Origin: Shigella phage SH-2
Sequence record: PQ642267
Strand: one strand, 5' to 3'
DNA length: 64,000 nucleotides
How positions within the stretch are numbered: position 1 is the stretch's first letter; each line of letters opens with the position of its first letter. The notes under the pieces are model-generated. The model made no database searches. It was not told where the DNA came from and saw only the letters and a program-made list of their open reading frames with translations. Position numbers and translations under genes: made by a program. Shown here piece after piece: positions 309 through 8,051 of the stretch.

Positions 309-629
309 TTATAGCGTAATCCATTCTCGTATTGTCTGAGTTACTACACGTTCACGGGGCTCGACTAGTTCAACAGTTGGAACTGCATAATACCAGTCAG
401 AATGGTAAGAACCTGAGCGAGATTCATTTACGGAAACATGTACATTATGTTTTGGACTAAAATAAACACACTGTCGATATTGGCATTTACCATCTTGTAC
501 CCAATCTTCTATTTCGACAGGTTTAAGATAATCCGAAAAATCGAAATCATAATTTTCTGAAAATGCATCATGGTCTTCGATGATTTCACTCAGAACTGCA
601 TCAACATCTAATTTATTTTCAATATTCAT
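309..629 (-). CDS. hypothetical early protein (106 aa)
   Basis: ORF track; ATG at 627-629; acidic, no motif recognised. Confidence 0.45.
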   Translation of the reverse strand: MNIENKLDVDAVLSEIIEDHDAFSENYDFDFSDYLKPVEIEDWVQDGKCQYRQCVYFSPKHNVHVSVNESRSGSYHSDWYYAVPTVELVEPRERVVTQTIREWITL

Positions 630-1289: not shown

Positions 1290-1532
1290 TTATTCCTTAA
1301 TTCCTAGTACTTGTTTAAAAGCCTCGTCGTAATCAAGACTTTGACCCGTTTGTTCTTTATGTTTGTATATAATATCACTTACTTCTGATAGCATATTTTT
1401 ATATGAACGAGTTAAAGCAGATTTAAGCACGCTGTATCTATCAGGAAATTTACCGTGTTCATTATAATACGCTATTGCTAATTCACGGACTGCCTTTTCA
1501 GCAATCTCCATATATTCTTTACGCTTTGTCAT
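1290..1532 (-). CDS. hypothetical small protein (~80 aa)
   Basis: ORF track 1290-1667; internal ATG at 1530-1532 directly follows upstream stop (TAAAATG). Confidence 0.4.
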
Positions 1533-1533
1533 T

Positions 1534-1923
1534 TTAATCCAAAATATTATTAGGCATTGGTTGAACACTCGCAAGTTCTTTAAAGAACTCAGTAGAGTCA
1601 GGTAATTTAACCATTTCCGGAGCATGCTTACTAAATTTATGTTTGCAATGACGGCATTTATATTCAAGTTCCGGTTTACGCCAGTTAATCAATTGAACCT
1701 GTTCAGTACCGCATTCAGGACAATTAGGAACGTTTTTAGAAGCCCTTTCGCGACGTTCAACCATAGCCATAATAGCATCCCAGGCTGGAGGTTTAAAATC
1801 TAAATCGTCACAACCATGAATCTTTCCACGCATTTCTAAATCGTCTTCTTCACCAGCCATAATAATTTTAATTAGACTGGAATTACTTGAAGCTGCAATA
1901 TCTTCTAATAAGCGCTTTTTCAT
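1534..1923 (-). CDS. hypothetical protein with Cys4 zinc-ribbon-like motif (CPECG...CRHC)
   Basis: 129-aa ORF, ATG at 1921-1923 overlapping upstream stop (ATGA); CxxC...CxxC pair. Confidence 0.45.
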
Positions 1924-2849
1924 TTCAGTACCTCAATAGCATTACGTAAACCATTTGCTTTTGCATTAAGAGCTTTTAACAGTTTGGTGTGTTCGGCAAT
2001 CTGGGCTTCAACTTCAATCAAACGAGCATTGAGATATTCGCGTTCTTCGCTCAGGTTATCAACCTTTTCTACTTTAGGTTCTTTTACAACTGGCTTATAT
2101 GTATTAGGGTTCTTCAGTTTAATTAGAATACGTGAACTGTATAACATTGAACCATTATTTTCGGTTTCGTCATACATTTCTACTACGTCCATGATTTTTA
2201 ACATCATGCGGAGTTTATAAGATAACGAACGAATAGTTTTGTTGTGCTTATTAATTTCTCTAGCTGTCATGGTGCCGAGATTACGTGAGTAATAATAAGG
2301 AACCTGGATATTAATTAATACTGATGAACCACCTGGCTTGTGTGTTACTTCATCAGCAATAACCCAATCCTTAACATGAACTGTATTTGTACGGTCATCG
2401 CCTGCGGTAAATAGTTTACGAGCATGCTTAAAAAGCATATTCACTTGGTCATTAAATTGACAGGCAAATTTATCAGCAAATTTAGTTTCAGGAATGGTAG
2501 ATAGCCAATCAGCCAAATGGGTCTTTTTAACATCGTTAACAATAGTAAATTCAACCAAATCAGTTATAGATGTCGCAGATTTAATAAAACTCGGCTTCAT
2601 AAAGTTTTTAATGTTATCGCGAGCTACAGTAGAAGATAACATACGAGAACGTTTAAACCATTCAAGCAAATTGCCTAATGAATGAGAATAGGCGTTCTGA
2701 GTATCTTTACAGATATGATTTTCCTGGCCAACATATTGAAGGAAATCACGAAGAATATTATTGATTACTGCTCTGTGCCCGATCTGATAATTACGATGTT
2801 TAGTAATAAGACTATCAAAATAATCAATATAATGTTTACGAGTTTTCAT
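1920..2849 (-). CDS. paralog-family protein 1 (309 aa, C-terminal coiled coil)
   Basis: ATG at 2847-2849; N-terminus MKTRKHYIDYF; shares N-terminal and central motifs plus a heptad-rich C-terminus with the next three genes. Confidence 0.55.
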   Translation of the reverse strand: MKTRKHYIDYFDSLITKHRNYQIGHRAVINNILRDFLQYVGQENHICKDTQNAYSHSLGNLLEWFKRSRMLSSTVARDNIKNFMKPSFIKSATSITDLVEFTIVNDVKKTHLADWLSTIPETKFADKFACQFNDQVNMLFKHARKLFTAGDDRTNTVHVKDWVIADEVTHKPGGSSVLINIQVPYYYSRNLGTMTAREINKHNKTIRSLSYKLRMMLKIMDVVEMYDETENNGSMLYSSRILIKLKNPNTYKPVVKEPKVEKVDNLSEEREYLNARLIEVEAQIAEHTKLLKALNAKANGLRNAIEVLK

Positions 2850-2901
2850 GTTCTTCTCACTTGATTAATGATTTATGCTCCGAGCCATCCTTGGCTTTAA
2901 A

Positions 2902-3903
2902 TTACTTAATTAGCTGTAAAGCTTGTTCAAGACGATCCAGACGATTAACAGATTCTTCCCAAATCCTTTTAGCCTTCTCATATTCTTTCTGCGCTTTATT
3001 AGAAATTTCTAGAACTTCTTTATAAGCTTTTTCTAGTGCAATAACTTCTGGACGAATTTCTATCGGTTCAGGCGAATCGTCAAGACATTCCATTAGTTCT
3101 TCAAGGGTAGTTTCTTCTTTAGGAGTATTCACAATTTCATCACATTTTTGTTGGTAAATTTCTTTATCAGTCGGTGAATAAGCGCATTTCACTTCACGAA
3201 GGCTAATTATAATTTTATATCCTTCCCACCCACACATATTTTTGAAAGGATATGTATGAATACTTTTTACAGTTTCCATACAGCCCAAAACCGCCTCTAA
3301 TTGATAAGTTATAGTGCTAGCAATTGAGAAAAATTTATTAATATTCTTTTGGTTAGCGTTTGGTGTAAAAAATCCATAATTCACAAAAATAGCTACTTTA
3401 TTTTTATCAAGCTCATATTCTTTTACGATAATCATATCAGAAGCCAAAGGATGAATTTGACGATAATCGCCATAACATAATTTAGAAGCTGATTTTAGAA
3501 TTTGTCCTTTGAAAAGTCTGAAATTACTAATCCAACGACGAGTAAAAATATTCTCAGGGTCTTCTTTATTATTAAGATGATAAGAATTAACATCACCGAA
3601 CCAATTATATCCTACTACATCTTTAGTTCGTTTAATTTCTTTCCCAAATTTACCAAGAATATCTCTGTTGACTAAGTATGAAAGAAGACGAGACCCTTTA
3701 AAGGTTTTCTTAATGTCATCTTTATCTGTACGACTAGAAATTTCACGAACTTCGTGAATAAATCTGCTGGAAGAAACAATGCTTACATCAATATTATTGA
3801 GCCATTGATTGATAATAGAAAGAACACTATTCTGACTAGACATAGGTTTAACTTTATCATCAATAACACTGTTGAATGATTTGATATATTCGTTACGAGT
3901 CAT
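2902..3903 (-). CDS. paralog-family protein 2 (~333 aa, C-terminal coiled coil)
   Basis: Track start 3954 is upstream of the promoter; ATG at 3901-3903 has GAGGAG SD; begins MTRNEYIKSF. Confidence 0.55.
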   Translation of the reverse strand: MTRNEYIKSFNSVIDDKVKPMSSQNSVLSIINQWLNNIDVSIVSSSRFIHEVREISSRTDKDDIKKTFKGSRLLSYLVNRDILGKFGKEIKRTKDVVGYNWFGDVNSYHLNNKEDPENIFTRRWISNFRLFKGQILKSASKLCYGDYRQIHPLASDMIIVKEYELDKNKVAIFVNYGFFTPNANQKNINKFFSIASTITYQLEAVLGCMETVKSIHTYPFKNMCGWEGYKIIISLREVKCAYSPTDKEIYQQKCDEIVNTPKEETTLEELMECLDDSPEPIEIRPEVIALEKAYKEVLEISNKAQKEYEKAKRIWEESVNRLDRLEQALQLIK

Positions 3904-3932
3904 ATTAATCTCCTCAGTAGAAAGTAAGAACA

Positions 3933-3961
3933 TTATACCACATCCTTGTGGCAAAGTAAAC
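3933..3961 (-). promoter_or_regulatory. T4-type early promoter (GTTTAC -35, TATAAT -10)
   Basis: Minus strand reads GTTTAC...TATAAT, followed by SD and ATG at 3903. Confidence 0.5.
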
Positions 3962-4989
3962 TAGTTTAGTGCATTTAGTGCATTGTTCAGTTTAGAACGT
4001 TGCTTCGTAAGATTTTTGACTTTTTCTTGAGCTTTTTCTAGCATCTTTTCAGCTTCTAGCACTTCATTAGTTGCTTTAACGAGTTCATCATCTACTGCCT
4101 TGATAGACTTCTCAATCGCATCGGCATGCCATTTTTCAACAGGTTTAAGACTCGGATTTTCAACAGGAAGAAAATTCACTTTATTGAATTTCCATTCATC
4201 CTTATTACCTGAACTATACATCCAAAATTTAGGATCGTTTGATGGGTAATTGGATAAATTTAAATTTAAGTTATCTTGCACTTCCTGCTTTTTCTCTTGC
4301 GGGACTTCGTCCTTTCTCAAAAAATCGTATTTAAATGAAACGATCATATCAAGTTCATATGTTGTTGTGTCTAATTTAAATCGTTCGAAATGTTGTGAAA
4401 TCTTAGACTGAACAGCAGCAACAACATCCATATACTTAAATGCTTCTGTCAACTGCGATTTAAGGCATTCGCAAATTGAAAGAGAATTTTTTGTATTAGG
4501 TTTAAAGCTAATTCGTGCAGTTCTGTTATTTTCTTTTAATGGTCTTACTTCCATCTGAAGAGTATAACCATCAAATTTCAGATTCTTTAAGTTAATATCA
4601 GAACCTTTTAATCGACTCGCAGTTGATAAAATTTGCTTTAATTGTCTACGGAACAGAGCAATAAATCTCCATTCAATACGATAATGATTTGGATTGAAAA
4701 ATCCAGATGATAAATCGACCTTACTTTGACCAACGCCTTGAACAAATAGAGGATTTTTATAATCAATAGTTTTACAGAAATCGGTGAGCTGCTCACGAGC
4801 AGTCATTTGCGTAATATACCCTGCTTTACTAAAATTACGCACCCATTCACTGCTATTCGTATACTTAAAGTGATGAATAACACGATTAACTTTGTCAGGG
4901 TCTAAATTATTTTCACACAAAAATGTCATAACATCACGAGTATAGCTGGCATTACGAACCATATCTTCAATTTGAGAACGAGTTTTCAT
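3961..4989 (-). CDS. paralog-family protein 3 (342 aa, C-terminal coiled coil)
   Basis: ATG at 4987-4989 with AAGGAA SD; MKTRSQIEDM N-terminus; motif W..I..FRRQLKQIL..AS.LKG shared with neighbours. Confidence 0.55.
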   Translation of the reverse strand: MKTRSQIEDMVRNASYTRDVMTFLCENNLDPDKVNRVIHHFKYTNSSEWVRNFSKAGYITQMTAREQLTDFCKTIDYKNPLFVQGVGQSKVDLSSGFFNPNHYRIEWRFIALFRRQLKQILSTASRLKGSDINLKNLKFDGYTLQMEVRPLKENNRTARISFKPNTKNSLSICECLKSQLTEAFKYMDVVAAVQSKISQHFERFKLDTTTYELDMIVSFKYDFLRKDEVPQEKKQEVQDNLNLNLSNYPSNDPKFWMYSSGNKDEWKFNKVNFLPVENPSLKPVEKWHADAIEKSIKAVDDELVKATNEVLEAEKMLEKAQEKVKNLTKQRSKLNNALNALN

Positions 4990-4997
4990 GGTGTTCC

Positions 4998-5888
4998 TTA
5001 AGATTTAAGTAAATCAACAATTTTAATTAACTTTTCACGCTCAGATTTAGCTTTACTACTCAATCCAGATAGTCTGAAAATTTCATCGTCATATTGTTGA
5101 ATAGAAATATTCAGCTCTTCAATCTGCTTATTAAAATAATCAATTTGTTCAGAATGTTTTTCGTTACTACGAACCGGTACAGGTTTTGTAGGCAATTTAG
5201 TTGAACTGGATTCATCCGGGCGATAAATTAAAATACAACTTGAACCAATAGGGCATTTTGCACCAGATGAATATTCTAGTGTTCCAGCTTCTTTTAAAAC
5301 TTCAAAAGCTAAACAGAGATGATGACCCATATTGACATAATCTGTAGAGCGAGCTCTGATGTAATAATCATCTCCGCGAATACTAAATTTAAAGCATTTA
5401 AGGTCTTCTGTATTATTGGTCTTAAAAATCATTTGTTTATCTAGACCTTTAGCTAATCGAGCGCCTAATGCTAATAATCGTCGTTGATTTTCCCACAAAT
5501 CCGCAATCATTTGATCGAATGATAATTTCGGCATTAGTCGACCATAAAGGTCATATCCTTTATTATAATTACGAAGGATTTCACTCGCGTTAATACGAGA
5601 CAATGCTCCAATTTTATTAAGGGCTTTCATAATGCGATTAGATAAACTCATTCCAGATCCATTTGTTCGCTGCAAATGTTTTTCTAATCCAAATCCAATA
5701 TCAACTTTAAACTTATCTAAAATTTCTGCATGAACATCTTTGTCGATAACATTCAAATCCAAAGTTGGGTTAAATCTATGAAAAAATTTATCTGGCTCTC
5801 CACGGCGAAGTACAGTCCATTCATTCATCATTTTTTTATTAACTAATGATTTAATTACTGCATTGACATTATTAATTACTACTGACAT
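4998..5888 (-). CDS. paralog-family protein 4 (~296 aa, C-terminal coiled coil)
   Basis: Track start 5924 is GTG; ATG at 5886-5888 has GAGGAAA SD; C-terminal heptad region. Confidence 0.5.
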   Translation of the reverse strand: MSVVINNVNAVIKSLVNKKMMNEWTVLRRGEPDKFFHRFNPTLDLNVIDKDVHAEILDKFKVDIGFGLEKHLQRTNGSGMSLSNRIMKALNKIGALSRINASEILRNYNKGYDLYGRLMPKLSFDQMIADLWENQRRLLALGARLAKGLDKQMIFKTNNTEDLKCFKFSIRGDDYYIRARSTDYVNMGHHLCLAFEVLKEAGTLEYSSGAKCPIGSSCILIYRPDESSSTKLPTKPVPVRSNEKHSEQIDYFNKQIEELNISIQQYDDEIFRLSGLSSKAKSEREKLIKIVDLLKS

Positions 5889-5895
5889 ATTTTCC

Positions 5896-6303
5896 TCACT
5901 CAATTTCAATTTTACTAAATACACAGAATATGATTGAACAGACTACATAAGCGCCACACACGGATTGAACTAATACCATCCCAAAGAACCAAACAATATT
6001 ATCAAACAGTGTCTGTTTTACGTCGAAAGGACGTAAACTTACAGTAATATTATCACCTTTTTCTATTGAAGAATACATCTCTGGGGAAATATATTCACTA
6101 AATCTATAACCGTCTTTGAGTTCATATACGGCAATAAACGATAAACTAGACCCTTTTCCTTGAGTTCCTGTAATAGTATTAACTACAGTAACATCATAAT
6201 CTTTATAATGCATATAATCATTAATTGCGTAATAACCATATGCAACTACTATACATAAACAACATATCAATAAATTCAATCTTTTAATTATCAACCGTTT
6301 CAT
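5896..6303 (-). CDS. predicted membrane protein (135 aa, N- and C-terminal TM helices)
   Basis: Hydrophobic segments LLICCLCIVVAYGYYAI and IVWFFGMVLVQSVCGAYVVCSIIFCVF. Confidence 0.5.
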   Translation of the reverse strand: MKRLIIKRLNLLICCLCIVVAYGYYAINDYMHYKDYDVTVVNTITGTQGKGSSLSFIAVYELKDGYRFSEYISPEMYSSIEKGDNITVSLRPFDVKQTLFDNIVWFFGMVLVQSVCGAYVVCSIIFCVFSKIEIE

Positions 6304-6358
6304 AATAATCTCAATTAAAAGGGCTTAGAACCATTATACCATCCTTGGTATAAAGCGG

Positions 6359-6886
6359 TTATGCGAGTACCGTCTTTAACCGTTCTTCAAACTTCCGAAG
6401 AGTATTTTGGCGTTCAGCTCTTTGCTTTTTGTAAGTTTCAATACGCTCTGAAATGAGAGAGTATCGTTCATTTACTGATTCTTTCATAAAATCAGGAATT
6501 TCACGAGAAGCTTTAATCTCATCAAATTTATCAATAACAGCTTGCTCTTCAGCAATTAAATTATCATACATTAAAATATCTTTCTTGATGAACTCAATAT
6601 CTTCTTGAGTTACACGAGATAATTTAGATGCTTTATCCTTTTTGTACTGTTCGTTAGTATCACGAGACCAGTGTAATGTACGATTTTTATTCGTATTTTT
6701 GTAAATTTCGACAATACCAATCTCATCAATAATAACGATCCAATTCCAACGGGATTTGTAAATTTGTCCTCCATCAACTGTGATTTCACCTCCGATTGAG
6801 ATGTCGTTAAAGAACTTGCTTTGTGCTTCAGATTTAAATTTACCATCATTGTAATTTACCAGGTTGAAAATATCTTTAGCGTTCAT
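6359..6886 (-). CDS. hypothetical early protein (175 aa)
   Basis: ATG at 6884-6886 with GGAGG SD just downstream of early promoter. Confidence 0.5.
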   Translation of the reverse strand: MNAKDIFNLVNYNDGKFKSEAQSKFFNDISIGGEITVDGGQIYKSRWNWIVIIDEIGIVEIYKNTNKNRTLHWSRDTNEQYKKDKASKLSRVTQEDIEFIKKDILMYDNLIAEEQAVIDKFDEIKASREIPDFMKESVNERYSLISERIETYKKQRAERQNTLRKFEERLKTVLA

Positions 6887-7331: not shown

Positions 7332-8051
7332 TTAGGATTCTTCTAAATGTCTTTTCTGAAAAGTTGATACCATACTACGATACGGTTCATTTGGATACCC
7401 GTGTTTTATAGCTTCCTTTGTAAATTTTCTCCATCCATATTTAGTTTCTTTCCAAAGCTCGAATAATTCATCTTCATACTGCCATATAGTTAAATGAGAA
7501 CGCTTTGCAGCTTTAATTCCATTAATATGCTTTTCTTTTACTACAGGATTGTTTAGTTTCTTTTTAATAATATTACTAACTTTTCTAACAAAAACTGGGT
7601 CCTTATATCGTTGCGAAGTTTTTATTGAAGTGTTTAATTTAGCTTCCGGCGTGGATGTGACCTCTTTCATCTTTTTCTTCATATGCTGTATATGATTAGG
7701 ATTTTTCCATAAATTTATAGAATGCTTTTTGCATTTTATCCTAGTTTCATCTGCAACCTTTCCTCCTTCACCCCCGTATGACAGGTTAACACAGTTTTTT
7801 CCATATTTCAATTTACCTGCCATGATATATAATATTTCAGCTTGTACCATTTTATCATAATTATCAAAAACTTCTAAAACCGTTTTTGATAATATGTGGT
7901 CATTTGACACTTTTACACGTTCTATATAATTTCCACTACCAACATACGAATCATTGATGTTATTAGTTATATGTCGACCATAATAGTATTTCTTAATACC
8001 TGTCTTTAAATTTAATATTTCAGTTTTATAGATAGTAAAATATTTTTTCAT
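7332..8051 (-). CDS. GIY-YIG family homing endonuclease (seg-like)
   Basis: N-terminal IYK...YYYGRH...YVGSG (GIY-YIG) and NLSYGGEGG motif; parallels the segB-like protein at 26834-27499. Confidence 0.65.
   Translation of the reverse strand: MKKYFTIYKTEILNLKTGIKKYYYGRHITNNINDSYVGSGNYIERVKVSNDHILSKTVLEVFDNYDKMVQAEILYIMAGKLKYGKNCVNLSYGGEGGKVADETRIKCKKHSINLWKNPNHIQHMKKKMKEVTSTPEAKLNTSIKTSQRYKDPVFVRKVSNIIKKKLNNPVVKEKHINGIKAAKRSHLTIWQYEDELFELWKETKYGWRKFTKEAIKHGYPNEPYRSMVSTFQKRHLEES

Follow-up and report, generated by a model that had tools for sequence, protein, structure and literature searches.

In the 64,000-nucleotide stretch of Shigella phage SH-2 analysed here (record PQ642267, hereafter the window), four consecutive genes on the minus strand at 1920-5888 make up an expanded array of four ancient paralogues, which probably encode non-enzymatic binding proteins that counteract bacterial defences. 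Comparison with the annotated T4 genome identified all four open reading frames (ORFs) as orthologues of T4 nrdC.3, nrdC.4, nrdC.5 and nrdC.6, and we refer to them below as paralogues A, B, C and D, respectively (Table 1). That the genes exist and are dispensable was already known, as was the function of nrdC.5. What is new here is the grouping of the four genes and of single-copy genes from other Straboviridae into one family, a domain model composed of head, linker and tail, and a prediction for the three orphan genes nrdC.3, nrdC.4 and nrdC.6; our literature search found no paper on the function of these three, nor on the four genes as one family. An earlier reading of this DNA made from its letters (the sequence-only reading) had correctly delimited the four consecutive genes; its remark that the sequence allowed no functional assignment no longer holds for nrdC.5, a published anti-Dsr1 gene.

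Pairwise comparison with BLASTP joined only A and B (expect value, E, of 1.4e-8; 24% identity over 270 amino acids), and the other five pairs were not significant (E >0.1). Similarity at the level of profiles joins all four proteins, D most weakly. The first profiles, built from near-identical database hits, were shallow (effective number of sequences, Neff, ~1.5), and this was mended with orthologues from other genera, namely Mosigvirus (Mizar and TH12), Dhakavirus (Bp7) and Gaprivervirus (SP18 and RZ), and with hits from the representative search described below. The alignments with these orthologues were compared by hhalign. To guard against coiled-coil bias, these comparisons were run with the C-terminal helix cut off, and 30 column shuffles per pair served as control. 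In this form, A and B scored 83 (z 31), B and C 44 (E 1e-5, z 12.5), the joint AB profile 43 against C (z 15) and 22 against D (z 3.9), and C and D 26 (z 5), the last lying above every shuffle.

A HMMER search of 1.84 billion representative proteins with a joint A+B+C profile returned just 22 proteins at E<=1e-3, which are without exception family members or fragments of them, and brought in no unrelated coiled-coil protein. They include distant homologues of full length, found in Klebsiella phages (P0208, P0210), in Escherichia phage EcS1 (P0216) and in metagenomes (P0211, P0212, P0214, P0215), and the remote members from this search were combined into a bridging profile, R. By hhalign, R matched A at E 2.3e-12, B at 7.7e-11, C at 2.5e-16 and D at 2.4e-7 (93% probability); with the coiled coil removed the corresponding values were 5e-9, 1e-8, 1e-9 and 2e-5, and the comparison of R with D scored 42 against a shuffled maximum of 16. 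Three remote members (P0212, P0214 and P0216) matched the D profile along its globular part at E 4e-7 to 2e-5, values calculated with the search space set to one sequence while 11 sequences were tested. As independent support from structure, a Foldseek search of BFVD with the AlphaFold2 model of D gave full-length matches (E 3e-7 to 2e-3) to uncharacterised proteins of 300-335 amino acids from T4-type phages, including Enterobacter IME523, Pectobacterium PM2, Acinetobacter Acj9, Acj61 and fHyAci03, Citrobacter Merlin, Klebsiella Mineola and Yersinia fHe-Yen9-01. The Mineola match has the length of Mineola_080 (326 amino acids), a 38% homologue of P0210 that itself matches the C profile.

These results bear directly on the explanation that the four genes are not homologous at all, and that their likeness stems from composition (an AT-rich genome and coiled-coil tails) together with chance motifs. 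Such a reading could draw on the five of six BLASTP pairs that are not significant, on the lack of DNA-level repeats between the four genes beyond patches of 19-26 nt, and on Pfam and PHROGs, which separate the genes into three families. We nevertheless judge it very improbable, because the signal persists once the coiled coil is cut away and lies above all column-shuffled controls, the alignments keep a collinear order over their entire length, the search of 1.84 billion proteins drew in no unrelated coiled-coil proteins, and nrdC.10, Mineola_081 and EcS1 gp092, neighbouring genes that are unrelated to the family, give scores no better than noise. Non-homology is thus largely refuted for A, B and C, which are certainly homologous, and unlikely for D, which is very probably homologous to them and forms the weakest link. 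The sequence-only reading, which had taken the genes for tandem paralogues that are otherwise divergent, is borne out by alignments whose similarity goes beyond composition. Since no DNA-level similarity links the four genes, the duplications must be old rather than recent.

The position of the four proteins among catalogued families is uneven. Paralogue C is a member of phrog_2351 and matches PF23882 (DUF7235) over its full length (E 2.6e-126; 421.6 bits against a cut-off of 30), whereas a Pfam search at E<=1 gave no match of this family to A, B or D. These three thus fall outside DUF7235, as remote relatives only, with ~15-25% identity to NrdC.5, and are best placed in the wider NrdC.3-NrdC.6 superfamily defined here, which is confined to T4-type phages (Straboviridae). 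A and B share phrog_1435 and D matches phrog_2257; relatives of A carry the precomputed family PF26897, and those of D the precomputed domain PF26899. No significant match to a characterised family or a solved fold was found in PADLOC, Pfam or PDB. Hits to PHL, Phage_int_SAM_1, DUF3905, Cas6b_C, AAA_23 and BrxC in Pfam and PADLOC were rejected as falling below threshold or covering the coiled coil only. The product of nrdC.8, which also ends in a heptad-like helix, was likewise rejected as a family member, its matches (E 0.004-0.009) being confined to the tail.

The layout of the proteins was read from an alignment of 25 sequences covering all groups, in which the motifs follow one collinear order across the remote members and all four paralogues and are most degenerate in D. 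An N-terminal xTR motif is present in A, B and C and absent in D, followed by a helix with the pattern F.(K/R)sr.ls...Ar..l..F. Next comes a central helix, F(R/N)......L..A.(R/K)L, which corresponds to the motif FRRQLKQIL..AS.LKG of the sequence-only reading, and then a ββαββ unit formed by two strands, a helix with the pattern ..L..a...Md.V and two further strands (strand motif h.h.l). A variable linker with a conserved proline leads into the terminal helix, which ends in L..A(I/L).(L)LK. Of the common motifs that had been claimed for all four proteins, the central and C-terminal ones therefore hold throughout, and the N-terminal one fails in D.

The heptad-rich C-terminus described by the same reading was also confirmed. 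In each of the four proteins, the heptads of the final 49 residues keep one register, with 86-93% of a and d positions hydrophobic against 17-29% elsewhere, and the power at a period of 3.5 compared with shuffled sequences was significant for B (p<0.0005), C (0.0015) and D (0.0095), with p = 0.08 for A. The AlphaFold2 model of C contains a single helix over residues 284-341, with a predicted local distance difference test score (pLDDT) of 75-89 in this part, and that of D (pLDDT 77.7) contains tail helices at residues 243-272 and 278-295. The order of secondary-structure elements is alike in the two models, of which that of C is poor overall (pLDDT 49). Conserved across the superfamily in the 25-sequence alignment are only hydrophobic or structural positions and one or two basic ones; because no polar residue of catalytic type is conserved throughout, a role in binding or scaffolding is favoured over an enzymatic one.

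Table 1. Genes of the nrdC.3-nrdC.6 array, their C-terminal heptad helices and a promoter-like site in the window.
Feature	Position	Strand	Description	Support
Paralogue A, nrdC.3 orthologue	1920..2849	-	309 amino acids, MKTRKHY...	ORF call, identity to T4 protein 61%
Paralogue B, nrdC.4 orthologue	2902..3903	-	333 amino acids from ATG at 3903, MTRNEY	90% identical to T4 nrdC.4
Paralogue C, nrdC.5 orthologue	3961..4989	-	342 amino acids, MKTRSQ...	95% identical to T4 nrdC.5
Paralogue D, nrdC.6 orthologue	4998..5888	-	296 amino acids from ATG at 5888, MSVVINN	98% identical to T4 nrdC.6, residues 1-259
C-terminal heptad helix of A	1923..2069	-	residues 261-309; ends LRNAIEVLK	a/d 86% hydrophobic vs 29%
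C-terminal heptad helix of B	2905..3051	-	residues 285-333; ends LEQALQLIK	a/d 86% hydrophobic, p<0.0005
C-terminal heptad helix of C	3964..4143	-	residues 283-342; ends LNNALNALN	a/d 93% hydrophobic
C-terminal heptad helices of D	5001..5162	-	residues 243-296; ends KIVDLLKS	a/d 86% hydrophobic, p 0.0095
Promoter-like site ahead of B	3932..3960	-	TTTACT, 17 nt, TG-TATAAT	consensus-scan match only

The functional assignment starts from nrdC.5. According to Srikant, Guegler & Laub (eLife 2022, PMC9391042), the sirtuin defence gene dsr1 keeps a T4 deletion mutant from infecting ECOR17, plasmid-borne expression of T4 nrdC.5 allows the deletion phage to infect cells carrying Dsr1 again, and nrdC.5 is termed an early gene. 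At 95% identity to the T4 protein, the window's NrdC.5 probably counteracts Dsr1 as well. The sensor domain common to Dsr1 and Avs7, composed of tetratricopeptide repeats (TPR), recognises phage major capsid proteins (2026 preprint).

The array lies inside an anti-defence island, with published inhibitors of OLD, Septu and Druantia III on either side. The T6 protein Gp49.2 inhibits OLD (PMC13096335), and gp49.2 of the window (309-629) is 96% identical to that of T4; T4 NrdC.1 inhibits Septu (HIDEN-SEQ preprint), and nrdC.1 of the window (1290-1532) is 97.5% identical to it. The published Druantia III inhibitor bas37_0203 is, by the annotation of Bas37 (KarlGJung, MZ501089), the orthologue of nrdC.8 and is 98.9% identical to window 6359-6886. 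Transposon saturation data show that nrdC.3 to nrdC.6 are non-essential in K-12, in T4 and Bas37 alike. Together with the early expression of nrdC.5, this agrees with the placement of the array in an early accessory region by the sequence-only reading; the counter-defence role it had proposed is shown experimentally for T4 nrdC.5 and for the flanking inhibitors, and applies to nrdC.3, nrdC.4 and nrdC.6 as a prediction.

We propose that each protein has a helical N-terminal region, and that its amphipathic central helix and ββαββ unit would together form a globular 'head', followed by a variable, probably flexible linker and by the C-terminal heptad helix with the motif common to all paralogues. 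Expression of the genes is early, and laboratory E. coli can be infected without them; the fast-evolving head may recognise a particular host immune protein. For NrdC.5 this target would be Dsr1, an abortive-infection protein of the SIR2 type; most simply, its sensor or its NADase would be occupied or locked so that NAD+ is not depleted, perhaps by competition at the capsid-sensing TPR domain or by a lock on the NADase. The slow-evolving C-terminal helix may oligomerise the protein or dock a common partner, which would provide avidity against oligomeric defence complexes. Because nrdC.3, nrdC.4 and nrdC.6 are paralogues of the anti-Dsr1 gene nrdC.5, they are candidate inhibitors of other defences, and may do the same job against other strain-specific systems. 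The array may have grown from one copy to three or four in the coliphage genera, with recombination reshuffling it as hosts change.

Several observations weigh against this proposal. Experimental support is confined to nrdC.5, and the role of the other three genes is one we infer; the published result on NrdC.5 and Dsr1 is genetic, and direct binding of Dsr1 is a proposal. In two K-12-versus-host comparisons of Bas37, none of the four genes was significantly depleted: log2 fold changes ranged from -0.20 to +0.05 in one, and in the other the nrdC.6 orthologue changed most, by -0.73 (adjusted p 0.81). The nrdC.1 orthologue was significantly depleted in one of these two comparisons. Among Tequatrovirus orthologues, the ratio of nonsynonymous to synonymous substitution rates (dN/dS) is <0.3, which at the resolution of whole genes does not point to an arms race. 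The link to D consists of weak sequence signals, at 14-16 bits against single remote members, and its Foldseek matches have modest template modelling scores (TM-scores, 0.2-0.5). The AlphaFold2 model of C, built from 13 close homologues, is too poor to give a four-way superposition a basis. Oligomerisation by the tail would follow from heptad statistics only, and in the monomer model the tail of D folds as a helical hairpin, which could pack on the head instead.

A different explanation is that only nrdC.5 serves in counter-defence. The remaining three would then be duplicates that are relaxed or in decay, or would have an unrelated function in early host takeover, with linkage as the main reason for their persistence. 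In its favour, nrdC.3, nrdC.4 and nrdC.6 have no known phenotype, and broken natural copies do occur: the nrdC.5-like gene of SP18 and an nrdC.4 copy (L008) are split, Manna lacks nrdC.5 and most of nrdC.4, and nrdC.6 of the T4 reference appears to carry a frameshift close to its 3' end. We regard this explanation as doubtful, and decay of the duplicates in particular as unlikely, because all four genes are under purifying selection (gene-wide dN/dS 0.03-0.28, lowest in nrdC.6 and highest in nrdC.3, nrdC.4 and nrdC.5), of the 656 phage records with a match to the stretch 1920-5924, 462 have at least 80% of it covered by a single match, and orthologues retained in other genera are still 30-50% identical.

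The selection estimates also give no gene-wide support to the diversifying selection that the sequence-only reading had suggested. What is seen instead is variation by replacement of whole alleles or modules, by chimeras and by changes in copy number. Across genera, the tail is the slowest-evolving part in every orthologous group, with 61-86% identity compared with 35-50% for the head. Within Tequatrovirus, nrdC.3 is dimorphic, with two allele classes that are 62% identical, and their difference is concentrated in residues 61-266 (50-54% identity), against 88% in the first 60 residues and 81% in the tail. The window copy is 97.7% identical to bas37_0198 and is nearer to the Mosigvirus gene (Mizar, TH12), at 76%, than to that of T4, at 61%. 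As nrdC.3 is this divergent while its neighbours nrdC, nrdC.1, nrdC.6 and nrdC.8 are 96-99% identical to those of T4, the pattern points to an exchange of the central part of nrdC.3 between genera; nrdC.2 is also variable, at 82%.

Comparison of related phages, which the sequence-only reading had named as a check, shows that copy number ranges from one to four by genus. The family is found at one conserved position, on the same strand as nrdC.2 and nrdC and upstream of both, in T4, Bas37, Manna, SP18, Bp7, RZ, Mizar and Mineola, and EcS1 has a single copy in the same region, ~2 kb upstream of its thioredoxin gene. One copy is found in Jiaodavirus (Mineola) and Kagamiyamavirus (EcS1), three in Mosigvirus (nrdC.3-like, nrdC.5-like and nrdC.6-like) and in Dhakavirus and Gaprivervirus (nrdC.4, nrdC.5-like and nrdC.6), and four in Tequatrovirus. 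Of the closest pair, nrdC.3 and nrdC.4, Mosigvirus thus has only the former, and Dhakavirus and Gaprivervirus only the latter. Single-copy relatives occur in Klebsiella, Serratia, Erwinia and Kosakonia phages, and a scan of IMG/VR with the nrdC.5 alignment returned four near-identical loci and no extra diversity.

Several natural recombinants were found. Salmonella phage Manna retains only nrdC.3 and a fusion of an nrdC.6 head with an nrdC.4 tail, nrdC.5 and most of nrdC.4 having been deleted. The fusion gene Manna_094 (L004 5215-6252) is an in-frame chimera of nrdC.6 residues 1-~269 and the last 83 residues of nrdC.4, joined at a short common peptide (QQYDDEI in nrdC.6, QQKCDEI in nrdC.4). 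P0056 is a fusion of nrdC.5 and nrdC.3, and P0205 (173 amino acids, on an 803-bp contig) carries 120 unrelated N-terminal residues ahead of a tail identical to that of the window nrdC.5. The chimeras P0205 and P0056 suggest that the tail moves as a module. As for the split genes, the nrdC.5-like gene of SP18 is divided into two ORFs of 170 and 125 amino acids (gp093 and gp092; L002 5038-5942), and the nrdC.4 of one IMG/VR Tequatrovirus (L008 8054-9086) into ORFs of 193 and 158 amino acids; both may be either pseudogenes or sequencing frameshifts.

The conservation and mobility of the tail are also what would be expected if the paralogues cooperated, with their C-terminal helices zipping hetero-oligomers into a multi-headed complex that binds targets, or into a complex with some other early function. 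The terminal motif (L..A..LK) and the heptad register recur in the remote members as in all paralogues, the helix evolves most slowly in every orthologous group, tails are exchangeable in natural chimeras, and C, D and nrdC.7 are apparently co-transcribed. In the single-copy genera (Mineola, EcS1), however, a homomeric or monomeric form must function, and nrdC.5 alone in trans restored infection (PMC9391042), where the passages on this experiment do not state which paralogues were left in the deletion phage. On balance, cooperation of this kind appears unlikely. Quite unlikely, too, is a more far-reaching version in which the heptad tail would be a common docking module and the paralogues, together with chimeras like P0205, would form mixed oligomers as a combinatorial, multi-specific 'anti-immune hub', whose head repertoire could be changed simply by recombination at the linker. 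If such a hub exists, it would introduce a new principle into the organisation of phage counter-defence, and the slow evolution of the tail relative to the heads would be accounted for.

The reading we prefer, an array of related counter-defence binders, can be set beside known systems. The closest is T4 NrdC.5 itself (DUF7235/PF23882), which the window C resembles in its 95% identity, its full-length Pfam match and its genomic position, whereas A, B and D are remote paralogues with the same domain layout but no direct match to PF23882. A functional analogue is DSAD1 of phage SPbeta, a phage protein that blocks a defence-associated sirtuin; published abstracts describe it as acting against DSR2, a sensor of the phage tail tube protein, and a mechanism of this kind is the one proposed for NrdC.5 and Dsr1. 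It belongs, however, to another phage lineage and targets DSR2 rather than Dsr1, and it is likened here by function, without homology being assumed.

The internal proteins of T-even phages offer another parallel, as they are paralogues that combine a conserved terminal module with variable bodies and counter strain-specific defences, and phages differ in which of these genes they carry; a type IV restriction system is inhibited by IPI, and IPIII counters an unknown system in ECOR17. Unlike the proteins of the array, they are small, packaged in the head and injected, and they have no sequence relationship to nrdC.3-nrdC.6, whose products have 300-340 amino acids, are expressed early after injection and end in a C-terminal heptad helix rather than carrying a packaging signal. 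The T-even anti-defence islands, such as the dmd-tifA-adfA 'anti-TA island' and the genes gp49.2, nrdC.1 and nrdC.8, are likewise clusters of early dispensable genes directed at one host system each, but the neighbours within these islands are unrelated small proteins, whereas the array consists of four tandem members of one family.

As to its genomic setting, the SH-2 window belongs to Tequatrovirus, and its stretch 1920-5924 matches Shigella phage SH-1 at 100% identity. A Shine-Dalgarno-like motif precedes each of the four ATGs. C and D have no promoter-like site of their own, and the gaps between nrdC.7 and D (7 bp) and between D and C (8 bp) are very short, so nrdC.7, D and C are probably carried on one transcript. 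The promoter-like spacers upstream of nrdC.3 (2885-2894) and nrdC.7 (6339-6348) contain the palindrome CCA-AGGA-TGG, and a longer variant, CCACA-AGGA-TGTGG, lies upstream of nrdC.4 (3936-3953). Across the window, the palindrome CCAAGGATGG of the nrdC.3 and nrdC.7 upstream regions shows no enrichment, with 4 matches against 2.1 expected.

Three further observations concern individual genes. In the T4 reference (NC_000866; L001 12067-12894), nrdC.6 is annotated with 275 amino acids and an aberrant C-terminus (…IEELIFLFNNMMMKFSDYLD), and it appears frameshifted relative to the 296-amino-acid protein of the window and of other phages, with most of the terminal helix lost. The full 296 residues were recovered from the T4 reference in two pieces by tblastn, and the T4 annotation behind the HIDEN-SEQ study gives nrdC.6 as 891 bp; the frameshift may be a sequencing error or a strain variant. 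The adjacent nrdC.2 (1534-1923) encodes 129 amino acids in the window and in Bas37 and 104 in T4, has a CxxC…CxxC pattern (CPECG…CRHCK) resembling a zinc ribbon, and shows 67-98% identity among Tequatroviruses. Finally, an ORF at 7332-8051 (239 amino acids, MKKYFTIYKTE…YYYGRH…YVGSGNY…) stands between nrdC.9 and nrdC.10, where T4 has no gene, and by eye its product looks like a homing endonuclease of the GIY-YIG type.

To our knowledge, most of the ~150 dispensable genes of T4 have no assigned function. Phage counter-defence genes are mostly found singly. The array does not represent a new kind of biology, one of its members is already characterised, and the outcome, useful and directly testable, will not surprise a specialist. 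Through their superfamily relationship with NrdC.5 and their position in an inhibitor-rich stretch, nrdC.3, nrdC.4 and nrdC.6 become three concrete candidate anti-defence genes, and the domain model predicts that specificity resides in the head and a generic role in the tail. With relatives or fold-level matches in many enterobacterial and Acinetobacter T4-type phages, the family may also be relevant to the host range of therapeutic phages.

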